NCBI GenBank assembly: GCA_036630325.1
Contig: CP142726.1
Span: 1-64,000, forward strand
Direction of reading: 5' to 3'
Source: Vairimorpha necatrix
Lineage: Eukaryota
DNA: 64,000 nt
Shown: piece by piece, positions 1,754 to 62,600 of the stretch
Layout: each line of letters opens with the position of its first letter
Numbering within the stretch: the stretch's first letter is position 1
The notes under the pieces: model-generated
Database searches by the model: none
Seen by the model: the letters and a program-made list of their open reading frames with translations, nothing else
Told to the model about the DNA's origin: nothing
Program-made: the position numbers and the translations under genes

Positions 1754-4700
1754 TGTTATACTTTTATTTAATAGGGGGTTCAACCCAACATCCCCCTAAG
1801 ACGTGTAGTCTCAGGTTACAAGCTTCTAATTTTTCATTTTAATAATCTTTTAGGTCATAATGTCGTTTCTTAATGTATCTTCAGCTATCAGTCCTTACAA
1901 TATAAGAATAATTCTCGCACTTTCCCATTATTTTACCAACATTTGTGAATCTTCCTATCATATTTTTCATCTATTTTCCCAAAATTTTATCTTGCGATTT
2001 TCACAGCCTGATCTACTTCAAGTTTTTCTCTATGATTTTGTTTAAACTTACTTGCATATTCATCCTTTTCATCAATTTCCATAAAGACTTCTTCTCCTTA
2101 TTCTTTCCATGCTTCCATTGGTGTACATTTTATCGCTGTGTAGAGTGTTATTATAGGTTCTTACAGCTTGTTCTAGTTTTTCCTCTGGGTTTCCTTGTTT
2201 TTGATTGATCATCAATTCCCTTATTGTTCAAATACATCGTTCTATTCTTCCATTGCTCCTATGAGATTCTAAACCTACTTTCCGTTGTATAAATTTGTTT
2301 TCTTTACACCAAGTTACGTACTTCTCAGTGAAATATTTCTTACCGTTATCCGAAATATTCATCTAGGCATCCATCTTCATTTATCAATTAACCTAAAATT
2401 TTCGTAATAACATCACTTCCCTTATTTCCTATCTTTGCGCCCCATACTCTTCTTGTAAAGGAGTCAGTCCCTAATAGCACGTATTTTTCTTTTTTTTCAA
2501 TATCCATTACGTCTAAAGCTACTTTTTCTAATTTCTTAAATGTTGTTACAAATTTGGAACCTCCGGTCGTTTTTATGTTATTAATGCAACATACTTTACA
2601 ATTTTTTAGCATTGTGGTTATCTGGTCCAATACCTTGCCAGTACAGTCTTTGTTTTTCCTTATAATAAGTTTTTTCACTCCTCGATGATTTAAATCCTCA
2701 TGAACTCTGGAATTTCTGTCTCTCTTAGTTCTTTGTGTAGTAGTTCTTTAATTTCTCCTGTTGAGAACTTCAAATAGTTTTTACCTTCTCTTTTAACCAT
2801 GCGCTTTATTTGTCTCCCTTTCATCTGTTTTTAAGTCCGTTTCTATCTTTCGCTGCTTTTTTTATCACTTTGTTATTTTTAAATTGTCTACTAAGAGCAT
2901 CTACATCCGTCATCCATTCTCCTTTTACATATTCAATAGTAAAATCGAACTCTTGTATGTTTTTTATCCATCTATTATTTTTGTTAGTTTTGCGAAACGG
3001 TTTGTTTCTAATCTCAGCCAGTTCTTTATGATTTGTCATTTAATGAAATTTGCTTCTCTCAAATCGGATTCGAATTTCTTTATTCCAAATAACACTGTCA
3101 ACATCACTTTTTCATTAATCATATACCTTTTTTCTGTTGCTGTTAACATTTTTGATGCCCATTGTATCTGATTCCACCTTCCTTCTTTGTCTTCTTGCAA
3201 TAGTATAGCTCAAGTTCCCGTATCGTATGCATCTGTCCTTACTCTACACATTTTTTTACTATCTACCATTTTTAATTTTTTCACATCCTTTAAACCCTCT
3301 TTGATATCCATAAGAGCTCTTTCCATATCTTCGGACCATTCCCATTTAACATCTTTTTTTAGTGCTTCTGTAAGAAGCGCTGAAACATAAGCATAATGGG
3401 GAATAAAATCTCTTAACCAGCCTGCACGTCCTCAAATCTCTTAAGCTCTTTCATCTTGTTAGGCCTTCTGTATTCTAATGTCTCTTGCTTTTAAATTTCA
3501 TTTGGAGTTATGTCTTCTCCGTTAATTGTTACTCCAAGTAGTTTTACTTCTCCTTTATATTGTATTTTTTTTAAGTTTTTTTTAATCCACATTCGTTAAA
3601 TAATCGAATTACTTGTTTTAATAAATTTTCGTTTATATTACTATCTCTTGCATGAATAATAATAATATCATCCATATACACCTCAACACTCTTGCCTCTA
3701 AACTTATCTAAAACTCCGTTCATCACTTTTTACATAAAATAGGAAGATTTTTAAATCCCATTACCATGCTATTCTTTTTGTAAACTCTAACATTTATCTC
3801 AAAAGCTTTCTTATGCTTTTGAGCTTTCTTAATTTCTATATGATAGAATCCTTCCTTTAGTTCTATAACCATAAATACAATAGAACCTTATGTTGCCCTA
3901 ATAATGTCTCTAATCAATGGCAATTCATACGGATCTTTTTGCACCAGTTCGTTTAAAGCCATCAAATTGCTTCTAAATTGTACTTCACCATTTAGTTTTT
4001 CTATAGTACTTATTGGGCTTCTCCATTCGCTCTTTGTCCTTCTGAAACTACCTCTACTTTCTTTTAAATTAATATACTTTTCTAACTTTTCTCGAATTAT
4101 AAGAAATATTTTGTCTTTTTATAACTACTTTCACTTCTTGTTTTGTTTTGATAGAATATTTTCCCCCTGTTAAGTATTTTATTTTCCTTTCGTCTTTTCC
4201 TAATACATCAGGAAATTTTCCTTCCAATTCTTCATATTTAATAATATTTTTTCTCTTTTTATCTTGGTTTGTATTTTCCACATAAAAACTGTTTCTTATG
4301 TTCCTCTTTCTACCTCCACTGATAGTCTTAATTTAAAATCATTTTTTTTTAATATTTTCTTTTTACTATTATCACGAACCAAAATATTAAACACTTTTAT
4401 TTTTATTATTCTATTCTTGTTCTCCTTACGCTCTTTACAACCTCTAGCTATATGTATTATTTTCCACATATAAAACAATGGTTTTCTTCTCGTCTTTGAT
4501 ATCAAAAGTTTTTTGCTGGCACTGCTATAGTCCTAGTCAGTTATCCTTTAATCTTCTTTTATATTTTTCTTTCATAACCTCTACCATATATTCAAGTTCT
4601 CTACTCCTTAATTTTTCCTTGTTCTTATTCTCTTTCTTTTCAACAACTAATTTATCAATTTCATCAATAATATCATTCCAATTAATCATACTGGTCAAAT

Positions 4701-4922
4701 TTTTATCAATAATAAAATCCTGAAGTTCAGAAACTTACTTGTTTTATCGACTGCTTTGTTGTCACATCTTTTACATCTTTCTGCATTCTGATGATTGCTT
4801 CAACTCTCTGGGCTTCTTTTAGTAATTTTCTCTTCTCTTAAACACAGGTCTCACTTGTTACCCTTTCATCTTTTGTGTTTGCCATGTTATACATTTATTT
4901 AATAGGAGGTTCAACTTTAACA
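1754..4922 (-). mobile_element. Degenerate full-length mini Ty3/gypsy LTR retrotransposon, copy 1 (37/38-bp LTRs)
   Basis: LTRs 1754-1790 (tgttatacttttatttaatagggggttcaacccaaca) and 4885-4922 (tgttatacatttatttaataggaggttcaactttaaca). TSD TTATA at 1749-1753 and 4923-4927. PPT (TAGGGGGA) and PBS-like TGGCAAACACAA. Frameshifted CCHC knuckle, RT (YMDD at ~3668-3679), RNase H (DVDALSR) and integrase (ALDVMD, FTRRVWG). Confidence 0.92.
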
Positions 4923-6850
4923 TTATAATTAAAACACAAAGTATTTTTGGTGTAATTCTGCGAATAAATTTATGTAAAAATACATTGTAAAAGTATTGAA
5001 TCATGTCTTTATTTTGTAATATATTATTGTAAAAAATGTCATTCTTGTGTTTTGACATATTTCTTACTGGAAATATTCGTATTATAATAGAAAAAAAATA
5101 TTTTAGGGATATTATACAAATAACTTAAATCTCGAAAGCTTACTAACGCATATATACAGACATAGGAGCTCATAATCTTTAGGAAAGCTTATGATAAATA
5201 CTTTGAATAATAAAATTGAATCATTTTTCCAAGAAAGTAAAATGACGTGATAATTTGGAAACATTAAGGACTAGATTCCAGTGTTTGTTTAAAAATACAA
5301 TACGAATAACTAATTACAGTTGAATATTTCACTATAAAATTACGTGATATAAAAATAGATCAATGAAAGTAATTAAGATTTATGTATAAATTAATATGAT
5401 TTAATTTATTTTTATAACATAAGAAATTTTAGAAAAAAAATTGTTTTTTTAAATTTTTATCGAATATTTATATCTACTTGGCTGCTGCATAGGGATGCGT
5501 CTTCTTCTAATGTACAATTCTATGTATCTATGTATTTGCCCAACTGTTCAGGAAGTCTTTTATAAGTACAAATGATATGGTGTCTATTTTTTATGTTCTC
5601 TTTGGACTTCAATTTTTTATGGTAGAAAATATAATATTTTAAAAATAAGAGGGGGTGAAAATATTGGATAATTAAAAAATACATTCTATAAGAAATATAT
5701 TTGATTATGTGATCATAATCTCCTAGATATGTTTTTATATTTTCTGTTATAACCGTTAGATTTACTTCTTGATTGATCTTCATATAATTTTAATTATGAG
5801 GAGAACCAGTTTGATATATTGATAACCAGTTAATATTGATAAATTTTTTGCGATTCCGATATGTTGTATATTCAAAATTATTGCGTAAAAAATTGCGGAT
5901 GGTTTAAAAGTAACCTATCATTATCTATGAAAATGTTTTACATAATGTGTATATTAAAATGTATTTTTTATGATGTAACACTTTCATGGATTATTGAAAA
6001 ATTCCAATTTTTAATTAAATCATTAGATTGATTTCATTCTACGAAAATCAAAATGTTTATTCCAAAAAAATTCATAAAAATTTTTTTGTTAAAATATTTA
6101 CAATTTAATTTATCAATTTATTATTATATTTTTTTTATCAATTGATATTTAAATTAAATATTATTTGATAATTAATAATAATCGTCAACCGCATCTATGT
6201 TTAATATGTAATTGGGTTTATGCATTAAACTATTTTCTGTCATTATTAAAAATAAGAATTGTTTTTTTAATTTATATGCTCTTACATTATATTATCCTTA
6301 AATTTATATAAATATCTTTTGATTAGTTGCATTGGGTTTTGTTTATACTTTTTATTAACCCTTATTAGCTCTTATTAATTTATATTTTTAAATTCTTCGG
6401 TTAGTGTAGTTTTTTTTCGTAAAAATACTAATTCTGTTTTATTTTGATTTTATTTTTATCATAATTTTAGTATAAATAATAAATACGTGGAATATATGAT
6501 ATTTACTAGAAAAATTCATATGAAGAAATACGAAATTCATTTCCAGCTTAGTTTTGTGTATAAATTTACAATTTGTATAAATATTGATTATCTTATTATT
6601 CGAAATGTATTTATATTGTTTTCTGACCATTATTAGATTTATTTCTTAATTATTTATAATTATTTTCATTTGAATAATTTTTTGTAGTTTATTTTATAAT
6701 ATTTTTACAGATTATAACCAAAAATTTCAAAATACTGTTTTAATATAGGATAACAGAATGGAATGTTCGTTGTTGTGTTCCTATATAGATGTTTATATTT
6801 TATTTTTGTCGTATGTCTTATGTTTCTTTGAGACTTTAAATTTTCATTAT

Positions 6851-31971: not shown

Positions 31972-34269
31972 TCACTCTTCTTTATCTTTTATTGTTTTTA
32001 CTAAATCATCATGTAATGTTATTCCTGATTTATTTAAACTTTTTAATATGCCAATTTCACCTAATATGTTAACCATCCTTCTAAGAATTTTTTCGCAAGC
32101 ATATTGTTTAAATGCTTCATTATTTAAACTATTTTCGATAAGTGAAACAGAAACTCTTGGTAAATCTCTTTCACAACTTCTTTTTGTATTTTTGTCAATA
32201 AAAGCACTCAATTCAGCAAAGAATGTAATCAAAATGTTATCATTATATTCGAGTAGAATATTTTTGTCATATTTATCTATGAATTTAATCAATTCGTGAG
32301 TTTCAATATCACCTATATAAATATTTGTTATTTCTTCTCTTCCTCTTTCTCTTAAGTCATTTTCAAATTTAGTTCTTGTCTTTTCATCGTATAAATTTTC
32401 AATATTTGCATTTAAAGCTTCATTTTTCAAAGACATTAACTTTAATCTATGTATTTTTATATTTATTTTATTTAAGAGTGTCGTTATTTCAGATCTTTTA
32501 ATCTTTATTTCTTCTTCGCTCATTTTTAGATGGCTAATGCTTTCGATAATATTTTTAATATTATAAAAATACTTTAAATTTTCTTTTTTAATGTCTTCTA
32601 AATGTTTTTCTAATATTTTTTTACTTACCGTATCGTAATTTTTAGTAACTTCATTTTCCCCGAGGCCCAAATTTGCGATCTCATTACTTTTTACGATATA
32701 ATAATAATAATCAGCTGCAATGCATTCAGTCTTTTCTAAACCTGTAAACAATGCCGCAAATTTATATACAACCTTCCAAATATTTCTTTTATATATTTTT
32801 ATATCCGCAAGACAATTTTTTATTAAATATTGATATGCTTTACACAAATTAATATTATCTTCGCTCGAGATAATGTTCATTGAATTTTCCTGCGACGGAA
32901 CTAATTCAGTAATTCTTTTCAAAGTCCCAAATATTGGTTCATCGAATACATCGTTTTTATTAATAAGCTCTTCAGCTTCTAGCAATAAACAGATTTTAAT
33001 TAGATAGGTACTTGATGACTTATAGCCGCGCGAAAATATATCCTGTAGTGCTTCCAAGATTATTTGCCTTTCTGTTTTATTTCTCTGTTTTTTTCCTATT
33101 GTCAACTCTAGTTCGTTTTTATTAATTATATTCTGACAGTCTATAAGATATTTAAAAATAATATTCAGAACAGTGCTTGTTTTATCTAAAATTCTATTTA
33201 ATAAATAAAGTACTTGATTATTATTACTCATCAACCTATAAAACAATTCTATGATATTTTCTTTCTCTTTCATTTGTTCTATTGCATAAATTTTTTTAAA
33301 AAATCCTTGAAATTCTAAATAAGTTTTTTCATAAATGAATAATTTAGTTTCACCTCTACCTACCTTCTTTCTTAAAATATATTTAAAATTATCAGTGTTA
33401 ATAGTAAGACATAATTTTTCACATTCTAAACCCATTTGTATTTTGTTTTCGAAAAATTCAATTTTATTGAGTTCACAAACTGAAAAGCGTGAAGGATGTA
33501 AGGAACCGATATCATCAGTAGAAACAAAAGCATACAAATCACAAAACAACCTACTAATCAGATCATGACTTTCATCTTCATGTGGAGGCTCAAATTCTAC
33601 CAGTGATAATATCAAATTTCTATCAAGTTCTTTAACATCTATTTCAAAACAATAATATATATTATCTAATTGAATACTAATAACTAAATAAATTCCTTCT
33701 GTATTTTCTTCAATATATAGCGGAATTTTATAATCGATCCGAACTCCGTATAATTCCAAATCATCTCTCAATACTTTGGTCATTCTATACCATAGAGAAT
33801 CGATGCCAATTATATATTTATAAATGATATCAGGACGTATGTGCATTTCTTTTCGTTCGTCATTTATTTTTTCTATCCGTTTGATAATTCTTTTATAGAA
33901 TGCATTAGTTCTACAATTGTTTGGTCTGTATATTAATATTATAGCATCTGCTGCTTTTTTTTTGTATTTAATAAATAATTTTTCTTCGAATTTCTTTAAG
34001 ATATTATCAATAGATTTGTTCTCCATATCCACAATCAAATATTCTGATTCTTCAAAATGCCAAGGAAAAGTTGTAATCTTAATTCCTGCTTTTATTGCAT
34101 TTTTGCGAAGGTGAAAATTAAACATTACACATAAATATCTGCTTTCATTATTCAAAAAACAATAATCTCCTACTGCTATTTTATTTAAAAAAGCAATTTT
34201 TAGATTATTATACACAATATCCGAACATTGTACAACTAAAAATGCTACAACAAATTTAATTATATTCAT
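31972..34269 (-). CDS. 765-aa hypothetical secreted protein (N-terminal signal peptide, Lys/Ile-rich, no recognised domain)
   Basis: Long intact ORF with signal-like start MNIIKFVVAFLVVQCS. CCCC lies immediately before the ATG. Confidence 0.88.
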   Translation of the reverse strand: MNIIKFVVAFLVVQCSDIVYNNLKIAFLNKIAVGDYCFLNNESRYLCVMFNFHLRKNAIKAGIKITTFPWHFEESEYLIVDMENKSIDNILKKFEEKLFIKYKKKAADAIILIYRPNNCRTNAFYKRIIKRIEKINDERKEMHIRPDIIYKYIIGIDSLWYRMTKVLRDDLELYGVRIDYKIPLYIEENTEGIYLVISIQLDNIYYCFEIDVKELDRNLILSLVEFEPPHEDESHDLISRLFCDLYAFVSTDDIGSLHPSRFSVCELNKIEFFENKIQMGLECEKLCLTINTDNFKYILRKKVGRGETKLFIYEKTYLEFQGFFKKIYAIEQMKEKENIIELFYRLMSNNNQVLYLLNRILDKTSTVLNIIFKYLIDCQNIINKNELELTIGKKQRNKTERQIILEALQDIFSRGYKSSSTYLIKICLLLEAEELINKNDVFDEPIFGTLKRITELVPSQENSMNIISSEDNINLCKAYQYLIKNCLADIKIYKRNIWKVVYKFAALFTGLEKTECIAADYYYYIVKSNEIANLGLGENEVTKNYDTVSKKILEKHLEDIKKENLKYFYNIKNIIESISHLKMSEEEIKIKRSEITTLLNKINIKIHRLKLMSLKNEALNANIENLYDEKTRTKFENDLRERGREEITNIYIGDIETHELIKFIDKYDKNILLEYNDNILITFFAELSAFIDKNTKRSCERDLPRVSVSLIENSLNNEAFKQYACEKILRRMVNILGEIGILKSLNKSGITLHDDLVKTIKDKEE

Positions 34270-37952: not shown

Positions 37953-39047
37953 ATGTTTTTTATCATGTTTGTTTGCTTATATTTAACTTTCATTGATCAT
38001 GGAAATCATATTATTGAATATTTGTCTGGTATTGTATCCATTTATTTAAAATATCAAGCATTAAGAAGGCATTTACGTATTGAAAATGAATCGAGAATAG
38101 AAATTAAAGAGCAAAATGTGAATGCGTTAGATATAGAATCTTTCAAAAGCGAAGTTGCAAGTGTAATCATTGATGATTTAAGTGAACCAAAGATAGAGTA
38201 TAAATATTATGTAAATATTAATTTTATAGAGGTTTTTCAACACGAAAAAGAATTTAAAAAAAATTCTGATACTGACGCAATTGAATTTAGAGAAAACAAT
38301 ACCATTAAAGTATTGGGTTTTATTAATCGTTCTGATACTGATGCAATTGGATTTAGAGAAAATAATAACAATAATGAATTAGAATTTATAAAACGTTCTG
38401 ATACTGATGCAATTAAATTCAGAGAAAATAATAATAATAAAGAAGTAGAATTTAAAAAGAATTCTGGAACTGATGCAATTGAATTTAGAGAAAATAATAA
38501 TAATAAAGAAGTAGAATTTAAAAAGAATTCTGGAACTGATGCAATTGAATTTAGAGAAAATAATACCAATAAAGAATTAGAATTTGAAAAGAATTTTGAT
38601 ACTAGTACAATTGAATTTCGAGAAAATAATACCAATAAAGAATTAGAATTTAAAAAGAATTCTGAAACTGATGCAATTGAATTTAGCGAAACAAATACCA
38701 ATAAAGAATTAGAATTTGAAAATAATTTTGATACTAGTACAATTGAATTTCAAGAAAACAATACTAAGACAGAATTATATGACAACAATAAACCAGTAAT
38801 CTGTACTAAAGAGGATTACAATCCTAGCAAGCTCGATATCAAACAGGAGATTTCGCAATCAAATCATGTTAATGAAGAAGATTCATCTTCTGATGATGGC
38901 AATACTAAGCGTAACCCTGTGATGTCTCCATCTAATCTAATAACTGTTGTATTATTCATCATTATTCCATTAATAATTCTAGTTATGTATTATTCTTACA
39001 AATTATTTAAGATTAAACATACTAAAAATGCTATAAATGAATTATAA
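37953..39047 (+). CDS. 364-aa repeat-containing surface protein (N-terminal hydrophobic segment, ~8 x 21-aa repeats, C-terminal TM)
   Basis: 63-bp tandem repeats (SDTDAIEFRENNNNKELEFKKN) at ~38250-38770. TM LITVVLFIIIPLIILVMYY. CCC at 37946-37948. Confidence 0.92.
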   Translation: MFFIMFVCLYLTFIDHGNHIIEYLSGIVSIYLKYQALRRHLRIENESRIEIKEQNVNALDIESFKSEVASVIIDDLSEPKIEYKYYVNINFIEVFQHEKEFKKNSDTDAIEFRENNTIKVLGFINRSDTDAIGFRENNNNNELEFIKRSDTDAIKFRENNNNKEVEFKKNSGTDAIEFRENNNNKEVEFKKNSGTDAIEFRENNTNKELEFEKNFDTSTIEFRENNTNKELEFKKNSETDAIEFSETNTNKELEFENNFDTSTIEFQENNTKTELYDNNKPVICTKEDYNPSKLDIKQEISQSNHVNEEDSSSDDGNTKRNPVMSPSNLITVVLFIIIPLIILVMYYSYKLFKIKHTKNAINEL

Positions 39048-42506: not shown

Positions 42507-43808
42507 ATGTATTGGAAGCTTCAAATATTTATTATTTGGGGATATTGTTGGCTATCATTATTTGTTGAGTATAAAGAAAATGATACATGTGATGTATATG
42601 TTGGTGTTACAAGCTTTGCTAGCGGCCTAGAAAACCTGCAAATTACGCTTCTTAAAGACGAAGATTTTATTTCTGAGCGTCCAAATCGAGACGATTTATA
42701 TGATAAAGTAGAACTATCGATGGCAGGTAATAAAAGCGACTTACATCTAGTAAATAGAGAAGAATATGAAAAAATCAAAGCAGCATCATCAAAATTTAAT
42801 CGCTACGATTGTGTTTCAAAATTTATTAATAGTGCAAAATATTATAAATGTACAATCAACTTAGCGGATGGAAGAAAATATTTTTTTGGACTTCTTTTAG
42901 AAAGAGCGAATAATGGACCCAAAGATCTTTCTTACACACAATTATTTAATTTTGATGGTAATTTACATTTTGGGGAGCTAGTCATACTAAAAGCAAGAAA
43001 AATTATAAATAATTTGAGCCAGAATAGTTCAAATGTAATAAATAATTCTGATAAGAAGGGTACTAATAATTTGGATAATAGTAATAAGAATCCTGAGCAA
43101 AATGATACTTATGAAAATACTAAAGAGAATAAAAAACATCTCAATGTAGAACCGATTAAAAATTTTAAGAACGAAAGACTTGATGCTGATCTAAGTAACA
43201 TAAGACCTGATGATAATCTTGATAACGAAACTTCTGATAAGAATTTAAATAACTCGGAAACCGAGAAAACTTTATTGGACGAAACGCCTGATAAGATTCT
43301 AGGCAATTTGGAATCTGATAATAATCTTATAAAAAAATTCTCAGATAAAAATGGCAACGTAGAACTGGATAATAATCTTGAGAAAGAAGAATATAGTGTA
43401 AATTCAAAAAATTCAGAAACTTATGATAATCTTGCGAACAAAACTCCTGATACAGGTCTTGCGGACGAAACACCCGATAAGAACCTAAATTATTCGCAAT
43501 CAGAACCTGATAAAAATCTTGATGACGAAACGCCTGATCAGAATCCAGGCAATTTAGGGCTCGAGAATGAAAAGTTTGAAAAAAATCTAGTTGAATCGGA
43601 ATCTGATAATAATCTTGAGAACGAAAAAGCTGATAAAATTCTAAAAACCTCGATACCTGATAGTAAACACGACAATAATAACAATGATTCAAAAGACAAT
43701 CCCAATGACAGAAATAACAAACCATATCTTTATTTGTTGTTATATGCCATTTTCATATTAATATTTGCTTTTTCGGTATTTTTGTTAAGAAAAATAAATA
43801 AAAATTAA
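42507..43808 (+). CDS. 433-aa type-I membrane/surface protein, orphan family member 1
   Basis: Signal-like N-terminus, conserved ~150-aa domain, Asn/Asp-rich degenerate repeats (DETPDKNL) and C-terminal TM YLYLLLYAIFILIFAFSVFLL. CCC before the ATG. Confidence 0.92.
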   Translation: MYWKLQIFIIWGYCWLSLFVEYKENDTCDVYVGVTSFASGLENLQITLLKDEDFISERPNRDDLYDKVELSMAGNKSDLHLVNREEYEKIKAASSKFNRYDCVSKFINSAKYYKCTINLADGRKYFFGLLLERANNGPKDLSYTQLFNFDGNLHFGELVILKARKIINNLSQNSSNVINNSDKKGTNNLDNSNKNPEQNDTYENTKENKKHLNVEPIKNFKNERLDADLSNIRPDDNLDNETSDKNLNNSETEKTLLDETPDKILGNLESDNNLIKKFSDKNGNVELDNNLEKEEYSVNSKNSETYDNLANKTPDTGLADETPDKNLNYSQSEPDKNLDDETPDQNPGNLGLENEKFEKNLVESESDNNLENEKADKILKTSIPDSKHDNNNNDSKDNPNDRNNKPYLYLLLYAIFILIFAFSVFLLRKINKN

Positions 43809-49185: not shown

Positions 49186-50923
49186 ATGTCATTAAAATTA
49201 TATTGGTATTTTATTTTTAATCACTGTGAGTTGATATTATTTGTAGGTTATATGGAGATAATCAATGTGATTTATATATTGGCAAAACAAATAAAGCTGA
49301 CGAATTGAACGAATTTAAAATATTCATTTCTAGAGATAAAAACTTGTTTTATAAAGAAATTAAAGATCAATTGAAACTTAAGTACGAAATTAATCATCTT
49401 TTTGAAACTGGACTGTTTTTACATCAAATAGATGAAAGAGAATATGCTTCAATAAGAAATCTGGCCGAAAATCTTGAAGATGAAAATAGAAAATTAAGTT
49501 TTTTAATTGCGTACAATATTATAAATACAGTTTCAATATTTTAGAATATAATCAAATTTGTTTTGAAATAGTTTTCTATGAGAAAAACATAAATACTATT
49601 TGTTGGGGACATACAAAAGTATTTACTTTAGAAAAAAAAAATATTTTCAATACATTAAGTATGGAAAGAAAAATGCGATTATTTATCGATTCAAAGAATA
49701 ACGATTTATATTATAAATTTTTAGGTTTGCCCAAAAGATCAAATACTTTATATGCGAATATCGTTGGTGATAATACACAAAAGGAACATATTACCTTTTC
49801 AACGCTAGTTATGTTAGACATATATCGTATTAAAGAATCAAATGTACAAAATGCTTATAATTTAGAGAAAAAAACAATAAATGAATATAATCCTATCAAT
49901 TTGCAACATTTAAAACTTGTTTGTGTTGAAAACTTATTAGCTAAAAATAATTACTACGAAACCATTTTGGAAGCTAAAAATGATATCGAATTAAAGGGAA
50001 TAACAAAATATAAATTAATAACTTCATATTTTAGTTATCTATATAACAATAAAATCTTTCTTAGATACAAAAAGAAGAAATTAAAAAAACGTGATATTTT
50101 AGACGATCATAATATGAGTAATAAAATTAGAAATTTTTTATACATACATAACCCTCTTAATTCCATATGTATATATAAAAATAAAAAAATATATAAGGAA
50201 AATAAAAAGAATGTTAATATAAATGATTACAATAGAAGAAAGTATGCCGGAAATGAAGTACTAAAAAATAAACAAGATAAGAGATCTATTATTAGTTACA
50301 AAACTGCTATAAATGAGATATTAATAAAACCAAATATTAGAGAATATCATGATATGTTTAAGAAAATTAAAAATGTCTATATAGCGTCAATAATTCATAA
50401 TGGAAATTTCAATAAACGATACGAACACCCTATTCATGCCGTTTTCAAAGATTATATTTATTATGGACATAATTGTAGTAAATTTGCTAAAATTGACCTG
50501 AATTTAATAGTAGTATATATTCTCACAGTTATTAAAAAACAAAATACATGCACAAATTTGAAAGATTATAATCAAGAAAATACTAAAAAACACATAGTAT
50601 ATTACAATACTTTCGAATTCGATTCTAAAACTATTGTAGAACATAAAATAAATCCATTCGAAAATTCCAACAATAGTTTAATGATTGAAAATGGAGAAAC
50701 TAATACAAACTTAGTAAAAAATAATACCATGGATGTTCTAAACAGGAGTAAAGATCTCGAGGATAATATTTTATCACGTGAAAAATATTTTTTTTCTGAT
50801 TCGGAATCAAATAATGACAATTCCAACAACAGAAATGGGCCATCTAAGTTCAATTACTTGTTTTTTATCTTAATCCTATTGATTTTTTCATGTTCCATTT
50901 ATTTTAAATTGAAGCGCGAATAA
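49186..50923 (+). pseudogene. Orphan family member 2 (~580 aa reconstructed) with two 1-nt frameshifts (~49252, ~49506)
   Basis: cccttATG at 49186. MSLKLYWYFIFNHCELILFVGY/GDNQCDLYIG aligns with LFVEYKENDTCDVYVG. After the second shift, NCVQYYKY..FEIVFYE..W matches the paralogues. It joins ORF 49661-50923, which ends in a TM. Confidence 0.75.
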
Positions 50924-53900: not shown

Positions 53901-54856
53901 CGATTTGTTTTTCAATAATTGATAAATTATCGTAATTTAAAAATTGTATGCACATTATGTCTATATTTTTTTATTAAAATTAAATGAAGATATTTAAAGT
54001 TAGAAGTTTTGATATAAAACTTTTTTACATTACAATTTTTAATCGGATAAAATTGTTTTATTAAATTCAACACGCCAAAAGACTCTCGAACAGACCGACA
54101 ATAGAATTAAAACAAATGATAATAACATTCTATATTTTTACTGTATTTGCTTATCTTTTATAGTAAAGATATAAATTACAAGAGTCATGAATGTAACGAT
54201 TTAAAATTTGTGCTTTAAAATAATACCGTTCAAAAAAAATTTTGTTATAATTCTAAAAAACTGATCAACCGAATAAAATGCTCTGTTGTATTAAATTCTT
54301 TTATAAAATCAATGAATTTGATAAATAAATACTTATTAATTACAGATGATAAAAATCTAATTACTAGGCTTTTGCTTTCAAATAGTTTTTGATGAATATT
54401 ATAAACGTGAAATAATTTCAGAACGTTATAAGAAATTTAGTTGGTACAATTGATCAATGAATAAGAATTGGATGTTTTAATCTTATCCATACCAAACAAA
54501 AGTTTTATTTATAACTTCACTCCCATCCTTTGCGACCTAAACAAATTATGTATATATTGGATGCTACACATTAGCTACTAATAGATGATTTTTTCATTTT
54601 CTGTTTTTCTATTTTTAATCTGATGTGAATTTTATATATATAATAATTTGCAGGAAAAAAATGAAGACACGAATTATTTTAGTTGCTAAAACGGACAAGT
54701 TTTTTTCGAAAAAATATTTTTTCGATAAAAAATAATGTTTAAACAGAAAAAACAATAAAATGCAAACCCTTTTTAAGTAAAAAATATCAAGTTGATAACT
54801 GTCAATTTATGATTTTTATTAATTATTTATATAAATATCGATAATTTATGGCCCCA

Positions 54857-55456
54857 ATGTTATTAGGGTTAACTAAGTCTATTCTATTTGTATATAGCGA
54901 CTCATATTTACTATTTAATTATAAAGAAGATGATACTTGTAATTGTTATATTAGTCTTCCTAATAAAGCAGAAATTGATGATAATTGCAAAGTTTTTTTG
55001 TCTAAATACGAAAAACGGTTGTACGAAGAAGCAAGACATTCATGTAGTGCTGATATCTTCATAAAAAAAGTTTATGAGGAAGGACTTATACTGGAAGTGG
55101 TGGATAAAAAAGATTACGAAAAAATTGGAAGATTGGCTGGAATAATTACCAATGTGAAAACCCGTGAGATATTTTTGAACAATGAAAATTATCGAAAGTG
55201 TAGTTTGAATAAATGCCAGCACACAAATTTTTTTTTCGAAATTGTATTTTATGAACCGAAAAAACATAAAATTACATGGGAACATAGTGCAATGTACGAT
55301 TACGATCCGAAATATGTTTTCGGTAAACTAATGCTACACAGAACTAGAAGTTTAACTATAAGTGCTGGGTTTTATGAATTATATATAGAAAATTTAAACT
55401 CCTCCATTCGCTCGGATACACATAAATTGAACATTACAAATGACAAAAGGACATAG
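54857..55456 (+). CDS. Orphan family member 3 (~199 aa, N-terminal domain only, no TM; possibly truncated)
   Basis: LLFNYKEDDTCNCYI, VDKKDYEKI, YRKC, FFEIVFYE and FGKL match 42507 and 49186. The CCCC motif favours ATG 54857 over 54848. Confidence 0.8.
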   Translation: MLLGLTKSILFVYSDSYLLFNYKEDDTCNCYISLPNKAEIDDNCKVFLSKYEKRLYEEARHSCSADIFIKKVYEEGLILEVVDKKDYEKIGRLAGIITNVKTREIFLNNENYRKCSLNKCQHTNFFFEIVFYEPKKHKITWEHSAMYDYDPKYVFGKLMLHRTRSLTISAGFYELYIENLNSSIRSDTHKLNITNDKRT

Positions 55457-56610
55457 AAAAAAAGAATTGAAGATATAGACAACAAAAAAATACCGATGTT
55501 CATAAAAAGAAAACTTACGAAAAAAATCTAAAGTTTCTAACACAGCTTTAGAAATTAAATGTAATATTTTTAATTGGTAATATATATTATAAAGAAAATT
55601 TGCTTTTTTAAATTTTTAAGAATCATTTTAGAGATAATTTTTGTTTTCGACATAGCTGAGAGCAATTGTATGATTCTTTTGAGAATTAAATGTGTTAAAC
55701 AAGAAGCGGACACGAGAATAATTCTTTATTATGAACATGGATAATTGTAGTGACCAAATAACTAACAAGCTAGCTTGAGATGCGTAAAATCAACGGCATA
55801 CTAGAGTATATACAAAGTCTTCTACATCAGAAGTGATTTTTGTATATATCTGATAACTTTTTAAGGTATAAGCTTGAAGTTGCTTGAAAGAAAGGTCTAG
55901 AGCTGTAAAACACTGATCAGACAGACAAATACTATAAAGAAGAAGCGCGAATGAGTTGACCCAGTAAAATATATAAAATTTACAAAAATGAACATTTGCA
56001 GTAAATACAAAACTGGATAACTTAATTTTTCTTGATAATGTTAATTTATACATCAATATTTTCTATAATCGAAAATTATTAATCATAGTCTTTTATTTAA
56101 ACTACATGGTTCTTTTATTTCGTTTAAATATATAACGTATTTATATTTCTTTTTATTGATAATTTTAAAGTGAAATTATTTGTAATATTATACTAAATAT
56201 TTGAAATTTATTGACCAACTTTGTCTTTAGGTATATGGTTTCTAGTATAGTAAATTAAGATAAAATTTTTGTTTTCAAAAGATATAAGTAAACATTTACA
56301 AATATACATAATTGATTATGCTAAAACATTTTACGTATGTAAATGCTATAATATTTTAAAAAACGTTTTTAGTGATTATAATTAAAACACTTAGAAAGCA
56401 TATCAAAAATTAATTTAGAGTAATCATATGGCAAAATTGATCTAAAACAAGATAAAAATCACAAATAATCAAGTTTCTCCCAAATTTTAAAAAAATGATT
56501 TGATTACAAAAAAATTGTAACTAGTTATCATTACTTTTAATTTATCATAGACGATATAAATAACTCGCTATTTTTTTTAGATAATGTTAACCATTTATTT
56601 ATTGAGGGTT

Positions 56611-59112
56611 CTAAACCCTACATCCCCCCTCCAGACGGGTAGTCTCTCCATCTTCTAAACAACTCTTCCTTATCTCTTTCAAATCATAATGCCTCTTTTT
56701 AACAATTTTACCATCCAGTAGTCTCACAATATATGAATCATTTTCACTTATAGCTACGATCCTTCCGCGACCCGTGAATCTTCCCTTGTCTGTTTTCGCA
56801 CGTGTACCTAAATTTTCTCTCCTAGCGATTCTTACCTCTTTGCCTACTGTAAATGTCTCTCTGTGTCTTCTCTTGAACCGACCAGCATATTTTCCATTTT
56901 CATCATTTTCAATTATAACTTCAGCAGTTTGATCTCTCCACGCTTCCATCGGCGTACATTTTATTGCTGTATGTAGTGTATTATTATATCCTTTGATTGC
57001 TCTTTCTATCTTTTCAGAAATATTCCCATCATTCAGCTTTATCAATGTCTCTCTTATAGTTCTGATGCATCTCTAGATTCTACCATTACTCCTATGAGCT
57101 TCTAAGCCCACTTTCCTATGTTTAATATCATTAATACTACATCATTCTTTAAATCTATTACTTACAAACTCTTTTCCGTTGTCTGTCACATATTCCTCTG
57201 GAAATCCATCTTCCCTTATCCACTTTTGTAATACCTCTATAACTTCACTACTCTCTTTACACCTCAAATTCGAACCCCACAACCTTCTAGTAAAGTAATC
57301 AATACCCAGTAACACATACCTATTCTCTCCACCTATGTCCATTAAATCCAACGCCACTTTCTCCAATTTCTTTCTAGTTACTACGAAATCACATCCTCCT
57401 GTGTTTTTCCTATTGTTAATCCCACATATTTCACAATTCTTAATTACCTTATTAATATGATCTTTCATACCAGGCCAATACCATCTTTGTTTAATGTTAT
57501 AATAAGTGCCTTTGACACTTCTATGGTTTAACTCCTCATGTACTCTTGTTATTTCATGTTCTCTACTATCTAGGCTCAATATCTCTTTCACCTCACCTGT
57601 GGAAAATTCCCAATACTGTTTACCGTCCTTTTCTTTAATATGTTTCTGCTTTTTTCCCAAAATTTGTTTTTCGATCACTTCTTTTCTCTTGTTGTCCTTT
57701 TCTTTTTGTTAATCCGAAACTTCTACCTGATCATACTGCCTACTTAACGCATCTGCATCTGTCATCAACTCCCCTTTCACATACTCTATTGTAAAGTCAA
57801 ACTCTTGTATCTGTTCTACCCATCTGTTTATTCTGTTATTATTGAAGTATGGCTTATTTCTGATCTCTGCTAATGCTTTATGATCCGTCATCAAATGAAA
57901 TTTCCTTCCTCTCAAATCACTTTCAAACTTCTTTATTCCAAAAAACACCGCCAACATCTCCTTCTCACTTATCGTATATCTTCGCTCGGTAGGAGTCAAC
58001 ATTTTCGATGCCCATTGTATCGGAATCCACTCACCCTCTTTATTTTCTTGTAATAGAATTGCTCCGATCCCCGTATCACACGCATCAGTTTAATACTCTA
58101 AATAGCTTTTTTCCGTCCGGAATCTTCAACTTTTTCATATCTCTCAAGCCTTGCTTCATATCCTCAAAAGCTCTTTCCATATCCTCCGTCCAATTCCACT
58201 TAACATCTTTCTTTAAAGCCTCAGTAAGCCTTACTGTTCTATACGCATAGTTGGGAATAAAGTCTCTAAACCAACCAGTTAGTCCTAAAAATCTTCTTAA
58301 CTCTCTAACATTCTCAGGTTTTCTATATTCCAATGTCTCCTGCTTTTTAATCTCATTCGGTCCCATGACCTCCCCATTAATTGTTACTCCCAGCAACATC
58401 ACCTCATCTTTTTTGTATTGTATCTTTGTTTGGTTTATTCTCAACCCACACTCTTTAAACTTTTTAATTACCCTCTCTAGTAACTCGTCATGCACTCTTA
58501 CGTCTTTACCATGAATAACTATATCATCCATATATACTTCCACGCCTTTACCTCTGAATTCATCTAAAACTCTGTTCATTACTCTCTGCATTATATGAGG
58601 CGAATTCTTAAACCCCATAACCATACTATTCCATTCGTATACTCGACCATTCACTTCAAATGCTGTTTTGTGCTTATGGTGCTCCTCAATCTCAATATGA
58701 TAAAACCCTTCTTTTAAGTCGATAACCGTAAATACTTTTGACCCCTGTGTGGCTCTCATAATATCCTTAATTAACGGTAGTGAGTACGGGTCCTTGTCAA
58801 CCAAATCGTTTAACGCCATCAAATTGCTTACCAATCTTACGTCCCATTTGGTTTTTCAAGTTCTCTTTTTGGACTTCTCCACTCACTTTTGGAACGTCTT
58901 ATAACCCCTCTATTTTCCAACTTATTCAAGTACTCCTCAAATTTCACCCTAAGGTAGTATGGCACATTCTGCCCTCTTTTCACAACCTTTTCACCTTGCT
59001 TAGTATTTATTGGACACTTCTCTCCTGTGAGATATTTTATCTTTTCTTCTGATTCTTTAAAAACTTCCGGATACTTTTCAATTAAATTTTCTAACTTATT
59101 TACTGTTTTACA
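56611..59112 (-). pseudogene. pol: pol: RT, RNase H and integrase, with 2 frameshifts and 3 internal stops
   Basis: DLKEGFYHI, MGFKNSP, YMDDIVI; TDACDTG, EKEMLAV, ADALSR; HEELNH..CEIC, ALDLMD, TDNGKEF. The third catalytic residue position (SNGRI-E-R) reads TAG at ~57074. Confidence 0.92.
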
Positions 59113-59613
59113 TCATTTCCCTTCATTGTTGATAATTGGTTCTTTCTGTAAAACTTGTTCCTTTTTAATTTTATATTTTTCCCTACCAGCTACACTTTCA
59201 TGACATTCTCTAGCGTAATGCCCTTCTTTCTTACATATAAAACATTTTGTAGTTTCTCTGATTTCCCTTCTTTTCCTATACATCCTAAGATTTTCTTTTC
59301 TTTCTTCCCTAAACTCTTTCAACACTTTATCCATAATCTCTTTAATCATTTCTTGTCTTTCTTCTGACTCTCTCTCAAATTCTGCTCCTTTTTGTAAGCC
59401 TTTATAAATTTCCTCCCAACTGCTCCTTCCGTCACAAAAATTTTCAAAAATATAATCCTGCAAGTTCGCAGATGCCAAATCCATAACATCTTTCCACTCA
59501 ACTTTCAATATTAACTTTAGTCTCTTATCTATCCTAATTGCCTCTTTCTCTAATGTTCTAGCCTCTTGACTACGGGACTCTCTTGTTTCCCTGTTCATCC
59601 TTGTGTTCGCCAT
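59113..59613 (-). CDS. gag: Short Gag (~166 aa) with CCHC zinc knuckle
   Basis: CFICKKEGHYAREC. The MANT N-terminus is conserved with copy 1. Confidence 0.8.
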   Translation of the reverse strand: MANTRMNRETRESRSQEARTLEKEAIRIDKRLKLILKVEWKDVMDLASANLQDYIFENFCDGRSSWEEIYKGLQKGAEFERESEERQEMIKEIMDKVLKEFREERKENLRMYRKRREIRETTKCFICKKEGHYARECHESVAGREKYKIKKEQVLQKEPIINNEGK

Positions 59614-62600
59614 GTTAACCATTTATTTATTAAGGGTTCTAAACCCTACAGATAATGTTCTATAAGATATAACTTTTACAAATGTATTTTTTATAAAAAA
59701 TCGATTCGAATGTATTTATTACATAAATTTAAATTTTAAGGGCAGAGAATGGATTTAAGGGTTAATACAAAAACCATTTATAACTTTAAATATTCAATAG
59801 AACCCTTTTGCAGTTTAACATTATACATATGCTGAAAATAACTTCGGTATAATTTATTTTAATAAATGTTTTTATTGCTAATATTATTCTACTTGTTTTG
59901 TAAAACATTAATTTAATGTACTATTAGCAAATTAATAATATTTTGAAGTTTATAGCTCATACTAATGTGTTCATGACAAATTAAAATTCAAAACTAACGA
60001 GGTCTACAAAACATATGCCAATGTATTATAGAAAGTCTTTAATTTCTATTATACAACTAAACGTTAAATATATACTTAAAACATCAATGTTATTTTTTAT
60101 TTTTTACTTATAAAATAACGTTTTTTTTTCGAATTAACAAAATATTTAGATTGTAACAAATTTTATATAAGTATTTCAAACTACCCAAGAATATAAACTA
60201 TTGTGGAAATTTTTTAAAAAATCATAATACCAATGTATTTGTCTAAAAAATTCTCTTTACTATACAATCATTGCATCTATATGGTAGTAACGAATTGATA
60301 TATTGTGGCTGTTAAATGTATTATTTTTAATACACAATTTACTTTACCTCATACCTTACGATGTGTATTTTAGTGTATAGATTGCTTTATAAAAACAAAA
60401 ACTGACTTTAATAAATTAATAAGATGGTAATATTTGAAAATTTACATTGGTACTACAAAAGAAGCTGGTAAATTTGCAGATTTTCAAAAAATTTCTCTTC
60501 AAAGAAGAAGGTTTAACGTCCGTAAAAAAACATTGCACATAGCTTTTGTTATTGTCATTGATTTTCTTTTTTAAAATAGATTTGTTAAATAATGCGTTCC
60601 TTTCCTTTTAATATTTTTAAATGGATAAAATATATATTTATTATTATTATTAGTAAATAATTTACAGTAGATGCATTGGGTAAGTATCTACAATAAAGTA
60701 TTACTGAAGTGTCTTAGTATCTATATCATCATCTTGTAAATGGTTTTCTTATGTTTACAGTAGCAAAAAAACGAATATGAAAAAAATAAAAGTCAAGAGG
60801 TCAAACTAAAGGTGAGGACACCAGGAAAAAATTTTACAATAATGTATAGTATCGTAAACGTAGCATGAATAATTAAAATAAAGTAAAATTTAAGAGAAAG
60901 TCTTTATTGAAAAAAAAACAAGAAACTCTTGATTAGGCACACATTTAAGTGTTCATTTTTTAGAAAAAAGGGATTCATGTATATGGCATTTGTATCAAAT
61001 TAAAAGTATCTGAAATTTTTTTTTGATTTTTTTAAGTAAAAAAAATTGTTGAATTTTCTAATCATTTGCATGTTATTGATTCTAAAACAAAAATTGAACG
61101 CAATAAACCAGATATATGAAGCGCTCAATAGTTTTATCGAAATTACATATTAAAAATACAATTTGATATATGAGAAATCGCGAGCATTGACAGAAGCGAT
61201 TTGTTTTATGCAAATACGAAAATTAATTAAAAAATAGATAAGACCTAGAGCCTCTTAATGCAGATAATCACTTAATAAATTACAAAAAAATAAATTGTTT
61301 ATTTAAAATAAACCACTTTAAGAATACGATGCCTTTACTAAGTATGATCACAATGTAAATATAAAAAAAAATTTTATTTAAATGTTTAATTTTAGTTTAG
61401 TCTTGCACCAAATAAACTTGATACCTATAATTTGTGCAGTTGAGAAAACGACGATCAAGACGAATTTAAAGATGAAGAGTAGACTAATTCCTATTTATCA
61501 GGTTCTGATAACTAAACTGGCAATTATTCATTGTGTTGCTCTCATTTCTGCTTTCAATGTGGTTTTATGTTCAATCCAAGTGGAATTTCATTAGGGTTTT
61601 AATAAAAATGTAATATCCAAATTTTAATGTGTTAATTTTCACTTAAGCGTTGACTACGTGAAATTAGGTTAGGTTTATATAAAATTGCATGATTAAACCT
61701 TTGTAACTTGTCATTAAATGTTTTACGTTAAGAATTGATATATTAATAATTAATATATCATATCTTAATATGTTTTGTCCACAATAATACGATTGATCAA
61801 ATGAAACAAATCACTTGTTTAACCTTTGACTAATATAATAATATAAAATTTAAAGCTATGGTTTCTGACAAATCACAAAAAAAATTTATGCTAAAATATC
61901 AAACCTTAGCTTTTTGAGATGGTTTTTAATATTAATATAATGCAAAAGAAATCAAATTCTTATATATTTTTTCGTAGACAAAAAAAATTTTCAGTACAAC
62001 TACCATTCAAAGGTCCATGTACAAACACAATTTTATGATATATATATATATAAGAATTTATTGTGCAAAAAAAAATATATTTATAATTAATGCATGCGAC
62101 AACTTCATTATTACAGTATATCAGTTAATAGATAAAAAACTTAAAAGCGATTGTTTCTTATAGATATTATGTACTGTAACAAATGAACCATTGCAAAAAG
62201 TAATAAAGTTATATGTTTACTAATTTTAATTCCTAAAACTTTGTGTATAAGGCAAACAAATTTTGATACATACAGCAATGTTTATTATATCTTTTAAAAA
62301 CAATTCTTTGAACTTATGTGTTTGAATTTAATTACTATATTTTATTTCTTGTTTTATAATAAAAAATTCTATGAAACAATTATACGCGGATTTTCAATAT
62401 TGATTTTCGCTAGTATATGTTAATTACATTGAAAAAATACTCTTATGTATGTGTTTCTGTTTTAAATTTTTTTTATTAATTTTAGCCGAAATGTATGAAT
62501 TGTATTTACAAATTAAAAAACCTTTTTAAGAGCATAAGATTTGATGTTTATCATAAACAAATATCCTGCTTATTTAGTGCATAGATTTTTGTATGTTATA

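Follow-up and report, generated by a model that had tools for sequence, protein, structure and literature searches.

Element A, the subject of this study, is a Ty3/gypsy-type long terminal repeat (LTR) retrotransposon located on the minus strand of Vairimorpha necatrix contig CP142726.1 (assembly GCA_036630325.1), of which we analysed positions 1 to 64,000; this whole 64,000-nucleotide stretch is referred to below as the window. The element (also called copy A) occupies window positions 56585-59650 (3066 bp) and is terminated by direct repeats of just 38 bp each, which begin with TG, end with CA and are 37/38 identical, the single mismatch being T/C (TGTAGGGTTTAGAACCCT[T/C]AATAAATAAATGGTTAACA). 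Its components, including the target site duplication (TSD), primer binding site (PBS), polypurine tract (PPT) and the segments of the gag-pol open reading frame (ORF), are as follows:

59651-59655, GATAA on the plus strand: TSD on the 5' side of element A, identical to 56580-56584
59613-59650, minus strand: 5' LTR, 38 bp, TG..CA, containing ACCCTT and AATAAATAAA
59601-59612, minus strand: PBS-like sequence TGGCGAACACAA, adjoining the 5' LTR and lying within the gag frame (M-A-N-T)
59113-59622, minus strand: gag-like ORF (169 aa) with a CCHC knuckle at about 59203-59247; terminated by an in-frame stop at a point where the frame of relatives continues
58837-59112, minus strand: N-terminal part of the reverse transcriptase (RT), directly after gag; no Pfam matches
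58085-58834, minus strand: reverse transcriptase RVT_1, with a frameshift at either side
57709-58083, minus strand: Ty3/gypsy-type RNase H (RT_RNaseH), terminated by an in-frame stop
57142-57678, minus strand: integrase, with H2C2 and the beginning of the DDE core, terminated by an in-frame stop
56611-57141, minus strand: remaining integrase and C-terminal region, with an extra in-frame stop at 57073-57075; it runs 12 nt into the 3' LTR
56623-56632, minus strand: PPT GGAGGGGGGA, adjoining the 3' LTR and lying within the coding frame
56585-56622, minus strand: 3' LTR, 38 bp
56580-56584, GATAA on the plus strand: TSD on the 3' side of element A

Directly 3' of the 5' LTR stands TGGCGAACAC, with TGG first, and a conserved block, GAGACTACCCGTCT, lies upstream of the PPT. 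Element A therefore possesses direct TG..CA LTRs, a short TSD and an abutting PBS and PPT. A first-pass annotation of this DNA had claimed the 38-bp LTRs, the GATAA duplication, the abutting PPT and the TGG-starting PBS, all of which are confirmed from the letters. The LTR pattern matches at two places in the window, 100 dinucleotide shuffles gave no match, and the repeats exactly bracket a gag-pol frame together with TSD, PPT and PBS, which rules out a chance repeat.

Coding content of element A

Searches against Pfam recovered from element A a zf-CCHC knuckle (E 2.5e-4; 21.4 bits versus a cut-off of 20.8), RVT_1 (1.5e-30), RT_RNaseH (7.9e-28) and Integrase_H2C2 (3.6e-14). The rve family (4e-7) scored 30.7 bits, just below its cut-off of 32.6, and is above the cut-off in relatives. 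The gag thus has a CCHC nucleocapsid knuckle, the RNase H is of the gypsy type and the integrase comprises an H2C2 and a DDE part; the order on the minus strand is gag(CCHC)-RT-RNase H-integrase, of which the RT-RNase H-integrase part is kept in relatives. As element A is almost entirely coding, it lacks the non-coding internal region of terminal-repeat retrotransposons in miniature (TRIM) and small LTR retrotransposons (SMART). Its top protein matches are to the 'Pol polyprotein' of Nosema granulosis (77-85% identity), followed by Vairimorpha, Enteropsectra and Pseudoloma, and the named database matches are all microsporidian or contaminants of metagenome-assembled genomes (MAGs). Relatives contain single ORFs of about 1000 aa.

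Three-frame translation placed four in-frame stops (59113-59115, 57709-57711, 57142-57144 and 57073-57075) and two frameshifts (near 58835-58842 and near 58084-58093) in element A. This copy is structurally whole but dead, i.e. a pseudogene. The earlier description of a complete Ty3/gypsy retrotransposon is therefore correct as to structure and incorrect as to coding capacity, given these four stops and two frameshifts and the absence of a protease (see below).

An abundant variant of the same family

The family is multi-copy, and at none of the six breaks does its abundant variant agree with copy A. Depth was compared in four runs, in all cases as contigs. In run X1 the word depth was 4-6 in the flanks and 60-86 in the element, and in run X2 the element reached 60-2400; the abundant variant is more than 99% identical to copy A and about 13 times deeper than the flanks. 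Of two X1 contigs, the one spanning 56594-58259 deviates from copy A at 11 letters over 1665 nt and the one spanning 58230-59630 at 5 letters over 1411 nt. Wherever an X1 or X2 contig covers one of the six breaks, it shows an indel or a letter other than that of copy A. Contigs of high depth end within the LTRs (56594, 59630), as would be expected if many insertion sites diverge there. Matches to the clade are present in many metagenome and host-insect runs. At window position 59496, the abundant variant (X1, X2 and X4) carries 9 extra bases (three codons) in gag compared with copy A.

LTR length across the lineage

The window contains one more element, copy B, which is older and strongly decayed, belongs to a different family and shares 64.2% nucleotide identity with copy A. 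Its features, and the positions of a conserved block preceding the purine tract in copies A and B and in two relatives from other assemblies (L001 and L080, described below), are:

1754-4922, minus strand: copy B, about 200 bp from the telomere
4885-4922 (38 bp) and 1754-1790 (37 bp), minus strand: LTRs of copy B, with TG..CA ends and a purine tract
4923-4927 and 1749-1753: TSD of copy B, TATAA (element strand)
PBS-like sequence of copy B: TGGCAAACAC
56633-56646 (copy A), 1801-1814 (copy B), about 3641-3653 (L001) and about 2699-2712 (L080): conserved pre-PPT block

A degenerate LTR core pattern matched just the four LTRs of these two elements in the window, i.e. no solo LTRs. In a metagenome contig, L001, we identified a 3163-bp relative with 39-bp LTRs and the TSD TTATA. 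In L080, a contaminant contig of a 'Clostridium' MAG, a 911-aa open frame ends in a 38-nt LTR-like sequence, which represents the 3' end only and is followed by unrelated AT-rich flank; a search of that MAG for further copies of the L080 family returned this single LTR and no more. More distant relatives have internal repeats of 58 bp (L086), 66 bp (L005) and 75 bp (L094), lengths taken from the repeats themselves, and the repeats of L092 measure about 172-176 bp. A search of viral contigs gave six weak integrase-only matches and no relatives. The TSDs match in 3/3 elements found in long or genomic context (A, B and L001).

In a midpoint-rooted tree of 20 rows, built by a quick IQ-TREE run, copy A, L080 and L001 fall into one starred clade of 13 rows with proteins of about 1000 aa, together with sequences of Vairimorpha necatrix and Enteropsectra breve. 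L005 (66 bp) and L086 (58 bp) branch outside this clade, as do L094 and L092, which have a protease. Since L001 is placed at its first split, LTRs of 38-39 bp occur on both sides of the deepest fork. The pattern fits a stepwise shrinkage of the LTR along the tree and, judged from these sequences, the short LTR is a trait of the lineage and not a deletion derivative. The proposal of a minimal-LTR lineage in the first-pass annotation is thus upheld by copy B, L001 and L080, and by the intermediate lengths in more distant relatives, and the check that it suggested, for short TG..CA repeats with distinct 5-bp TSDs, succeeded with TATAA in copy B and TTATA in L001.

The block GAGACT(A)C(C/A)CGTCT is present just upstream of the purine tract in 4/4 elements of the 38-39-bp clade, which are 56-68% identical overall. 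The block codes for G-E-T-T-R-L, which is conserved at the C-terminus, and might fold into a small hairpin (AGAC/GTCT); an extended PPT or another cis element are possible roles.

Two side observations concern the relatives. In the degraded relative L095 (G002:C80), positions of about 1464-1510 hold a candidate 47-nt 5' LTR (TGT...CACA) with TGGCAACACC after it; the contig stops short of the 3' end. The MAGs titled Clostridium sp. (G001) and Turicibacter sp. (G002) contain 49 and 16 gypsy polyprotein matches, respectively (loci L080-L110). These matches are spread over numerous short contigs rich in AT, an indication that the bins are contaminated with eukaryotic DNA, probably of a microsporidian or a host.

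Absence of a protease

No element-encoded aspartic protease was found between gag and RT. Protease models matched none of the six pieces of element A (Pfam), in which the first conserved RT block follows the zinc knuckle at a distance of only about 35 residues, leaving no room for a protease. Protease families were likewise absent, at E<=0.1, from the 5 full-length relatives within the clade, and none of the 56 database matches of at least 46% identity (32 of them 895-1188 aa long) lists one. Outside the clade, gag-asp_proteas, Asp_protease_2 or RVP was detected in L094, L090, L096 and L092, with weak matches in L086, and a protease family is listed for 9/25 of the more distant database matches. 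The distance from the CCHC motif to RVT_1 in the clade relatives (115-139 aa) approximates that from the end of the protease to RVT_1 in protease-bearing elements (101-117 aa). This equality of spacing suggests that the protease domain was deleted rather than merely diverged.

Signals within the LTR

A poly(A) signal in the LTR, also noted in the first-pass annotation, proved to be general. AATAAA (mostly as AAATAAATA) occurs together with a C-triplet in all seven distinct LTRs (A, B 3', L080, L001, L086, L005 and L094); in an eighth sequence, the degraded 5' LTR of copy B, AATAAA is kept and CCTCC replaces the C-triplet. The triplet takes the form ACCCTT in the 5' LTR of copy A and in L001, L086 and L005. 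In the non-element DNA of the window, CCC has a background of 0.0024-0.0030 starts per nt, i.e. about 0.1 expected per 38 nt, and ACCCTT is found 16 times in 111,600 nt (both strands). An LTR hairpin (AGGGTT/AACCCT) described for the element fared less well: it is present in copy A, but with a z of -0.24 (78 of 200 shuffles fold as well), and it is absent from the copy B 5' LTR, L001 and L086.

These motifs have counterparts in host genes. Three of the five host ORFs of at least 150 aa in the window carry CCC within 10 nt upstream of the ATG. In N. ceranae, a C-triplet at most 15 nt from the start codon is the dominant upstream motif (PMC2685015). A CCC motif immediately upstream of expressed transcripts is given for Nosema, with the form ACCCTT in N. 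apis (PMC11592040), and mRNAs of E. cuniculi are described as having 5' untranslated regions (UTRs) of less than 7 nt and an AAUAAA near the stop (PMC2803860).

The coding frame starts within the 5' repeat or at its edge, and its end lies in or at the 3' repeat. The last A of the 5' LTR and the TG of the PBS form an in-frame ATG (M-A or M-V) in 6/6 elements with both ends. An additional in-frame ATG lies within the 5' LTR, downstream of the C-triplet, in copy A (LTR positions 29-31), copy B, L005 and L094, and the 3' LTR of L080, whose 5' end is missing, has the same ATG-NNN-AAC-ATG motif. Among 10 relatives with complete N-termini, two begin with 'MA' itself and six carry one more in-frame M at a distance of 4-7 codons before 'MA'. 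At the other end, the pol frame crosses the purine tract into the 3' LTR, where the stop codon TAG of copy A occupies LTR positions 10-12.

Proposed mechanism of a 38-bp LTR

Element A is very probably a dead copy of a multi-copy Ty3/gypsy lineage that has been compacted to about 3.0-3.2 kb, with a single protease-less frame, no untranslated leader or trailer, LTRs of 37-39 bp, and a mode of replication of the following kind. The whole LTR would fit into 38 bp because the gene-expression signals of the host are equally compact (CCC within about 20 nt of the start, short 5' UTRs, stop-proximal AAUAAA). U3 would correspond to about LTR positions 1-18, comprising the integrase end, the final codons of pol and ACCCTT as core promoter. 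Transcription would start just after ACCCTT and before the ATG at LTR position 29, and AAUAAA (positions 20-29) would bring about cleavage at the end of the LTR or slightly past it. With such a start and such a cleavage site, R would measure about 10-20 nt and U5 about 0.

A minus-strand strong-stop DNA of 10-20 nt, primed at the TGG-starting PBS, might then be transferred through the short R. Gag codons 1-4 would coincide with the PBS, and the final pol codons with the PPT, while PPT priming and integrase would regenerate the 38-bp LTRs and the 5-bp duplication. The polyprotein could escape processing altogether, or its cleavage could be left to a host protease or to that of a co-resident element. 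An R of about 15 nt in mouse mammary tumour virus (MMTV) provides a retroviral precedent for a very short R. Retroviruses of this type resemble the model in that strand transfer through an R of about 10-20 nt is what it needs; however, they have a long U3 and U5, and the entire 38-bp LTR is shorter than most retroviral U5 regions.

We also entertain, with slightly less than even confidence, the wider proposal that no functional LTRs shorter than those of this clade (37-39 bp), and no coding LTR retrotransposons smaller than its members (about 3.07 kb), are so far known. It would have adopted the CCC promoter and AAUAAA of its host, with an R of about 10-20 nt, no U5 and an ORF reaching from the 5' into the 3' LTR, and would have discarded the protease, so that a retrovirus-like particle or ribonucleoprotein would need to function with an unprocessed or host-processed polyprotein. 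If true, this would set a natural lower bound for the LTR and for the requirements of a retrovirus-like replication cycle.

Several observations weigh against the compact-LTR model and the lineage on which it is built. Concerning priming, no primer tRNA for the PBS was found in the window or in 19 loci (Rfam gave no matches in the window), and the PBS varies among elements after TGGC[AG], the variants including TGGCGAACAC and TGGCACCC; inspection by eye revealed no LTR-PBS complementarity that would suggest Tf1-like self-priming. The U3/R/U5 partition is drawn from motifs. The CCC of copy A stands 12-14 nt before the in-LTR ATG, farther than the host peak at -10 to -3, and the in-LTR ATG of L001, a broken copy, is out of frame. 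Elements of the 38-39-bp clade with both ends number three. The TSDs are mismatched in 3/3 short metagenome or MAG contigs (L086, L094, and L005 with 4 flank bases), so that the lengths of their LTRs are read from the repeat itself and the contigs may be collapsed assemblies. Repeats of 117 bp in L090 and 139 bp in L096 were dropped as LTRs because of their position at the end of a locus or contig, and because 139 is also the k used by the assembler. Finally, the tree was obtained by a quick method, its root is the midpoint rather than an established one, and L086 and L005 are on long branches.

Alternative explanations

The simplest objection, that the repeats arose by chance or by misassembly, might appeal to the very AT-rich, low-complexity genome. 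Its probability is practically nil considering the shuffling result, the exact bracketing of the gag-pol frame described above and the recurrence of the same design in independent assemblies. Very improbable too, if not to the same degree, is the notion that the 38-bp repeats are remnants of longer, internally deleted LTRs. LTRs below about 75 bp do not appear in the literature searched, and other microsporidian gypsy consensus sequences have longer ones (about 170 bp in Consensus_retroA of A. algerae, as counted from the printed text). However, a length of 37-38 bp is kept in two elements that are just 64% identical, L001 (39 bp) and L080 (38 bp) come from other assemblies, the start and stop of the ORF are built into the LTRs, and the contigs of the abundant unbroken variant end within the same short LTRs.

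Two further explanations accept the short LTR and question what it does. The LTR could be promoterless, consisting of integrase ends and a poly(A) signal, with transcription reading through from neighbouring genes; a U3 of less than 20 nt and the transcription overrun and multigene transcripts documented in E. cuniculi (PMC2803860) would agree with this. We consider it improbable, since read-through RNA without a defined 5' R could not regenerate identical LTRs by standard strand transfer, since the C-triplet is found in 7/7 distinct LTRs against the background expectation given above (the degraded 5' LTR of copy B being the exception), and since in-frame ATGs follow just downstream of it. Alternatively, the protease-less family could be non-autonomous, a short-LTR parasite relying on proteases supplied within the same cell by other gypsy elements or by the host. 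The absence of a protease from all full-length relatives and from all 56 database matches speaks for such dependence, as does the fact that protease-bearing relatives (L094 and others) share a MAG bin with L080 and L086. On the other hand, the protease-less clade is broad, with matches named from Nosema, Vairimorpha, Enteropsectra and Pseudoloma, the retention of open frames of about 1000 aa suggests long-term self-maintenance, and no protease-bearing element lies within the window. Taking these points together, we regard non-autonomy as unlikely, yet as an explanation that deserves real weight beside a self-sufficient lineage with compacted LTRs.

Relation to known elements

The closest known group is that of the single-ORF gypsy elements of microsporidia (Parisot et al. 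2014, PMC4202319), together with the Nbr elements of Nosema bombycis, said to have been described by Xu et al. in 2006. This group shares with element A the host phylum, a fused gag-pol and the RT-RNase H-integrase order, whereas the LTRs of the A. algerae gypsy consensus in the Parisot supplement are about 170 bp by count, compared with 37-39 bp here. A secondary citation in PMC2474625 credits the elements of N. bombycis with a gag, a protease, RT, RNase H and an integrase; the protease-less clade therefore differs from that description.

Ty3 and Tf1 have LTRs of hundreds of bp. These canonical Ty3/gypsy elements and element A share TG..CA LTRs, a 5-bp TSD, an abutting PBS and PPT, a CCHC gag, RT, gypsy-type RNase H and an H2C2-DDE integrase. 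In contrast to the element A clade, in which there is no protease and both ends of the ORF lie in LTRs, Ty3 and Tf1 have a protease and untranslated leaders. The shortest published LTRs encountered in our search are from grasses: the SMART element FRetro129 (292 bp, non-coding) has 85-bp repeats, and FRetro64, a coding Ty1/copia element of 5.2 kb, has LTRs of 76/90 bp (PMC3281118). Both resemble element A in their short LTRs and 5-bp TSD, with ends of TGT..ACA, but FRetro64 is a copia and not a gypsy element, resides in a plant host and has LTRs twice as long. In tomato, 'very short' LTRs are those of 194 bp (PMC3701649). Our search of the full-text literature on short or shortest, microsporidian and protease-less LTR elements, which did not cover repeat databases, found no LTR below 76 bp and no such architecture, although an earlier description is possible.

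The programs LTRharvest and LTR_FINDER have a default minimum LTR length of about 100 bp. Members of the clade would therefore be reported at best as 'pol fragments', and the transposable element content, insertion ages and solo-LTR counts of microsporidia would be misjudged. A 38-bp LTR in intact multi-copy families would be a natural minimal system for examining what U3, R and U5 need and how host promoter grammar is borrowed. Loss of the protease in a long-lived clade would challenge the view that an element-encoded protease is indispensable for LTR retrotransposons. Moreover, elements of this clade in bacterial MAG bins may serve as useful markers of microsporidian or other eukaryotic contamination.

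Genomic setting

The window, whose G+C content is 23%, is a gene-poor subtelomeric region of orphan genes. Its telomere type and the best protein matches of element A place the host among the Nosema-clade microsporidia. Besides the two elements, it contains the following features:

1 to about 1535: about 1.5 kb of irregular TTAGG/TAGG telomere repeats, C-rich strand on plus
about 1620-1700: an AT-rich unit of 20 nt, repeated about 3.5 times in tandem and located between the telomeric tract and copy B's 3' end
31972-34269, minus strand: host ORF
37953-39047, plus strand: host ORF
42507-43808, plus strand: host ORF
49661-50923, plus strand: host ORF
54848-55456, plus strand: host ORF

These five ORFs, the only host ORFs of at least 150 aa in the 64 kb, have no Pfam families above cut-off, and several have hydrophobic N-termini. 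A composite TAGG/TTAGG telomere has to date been reported for Nosema muscidifuracis only (PMC11592040).

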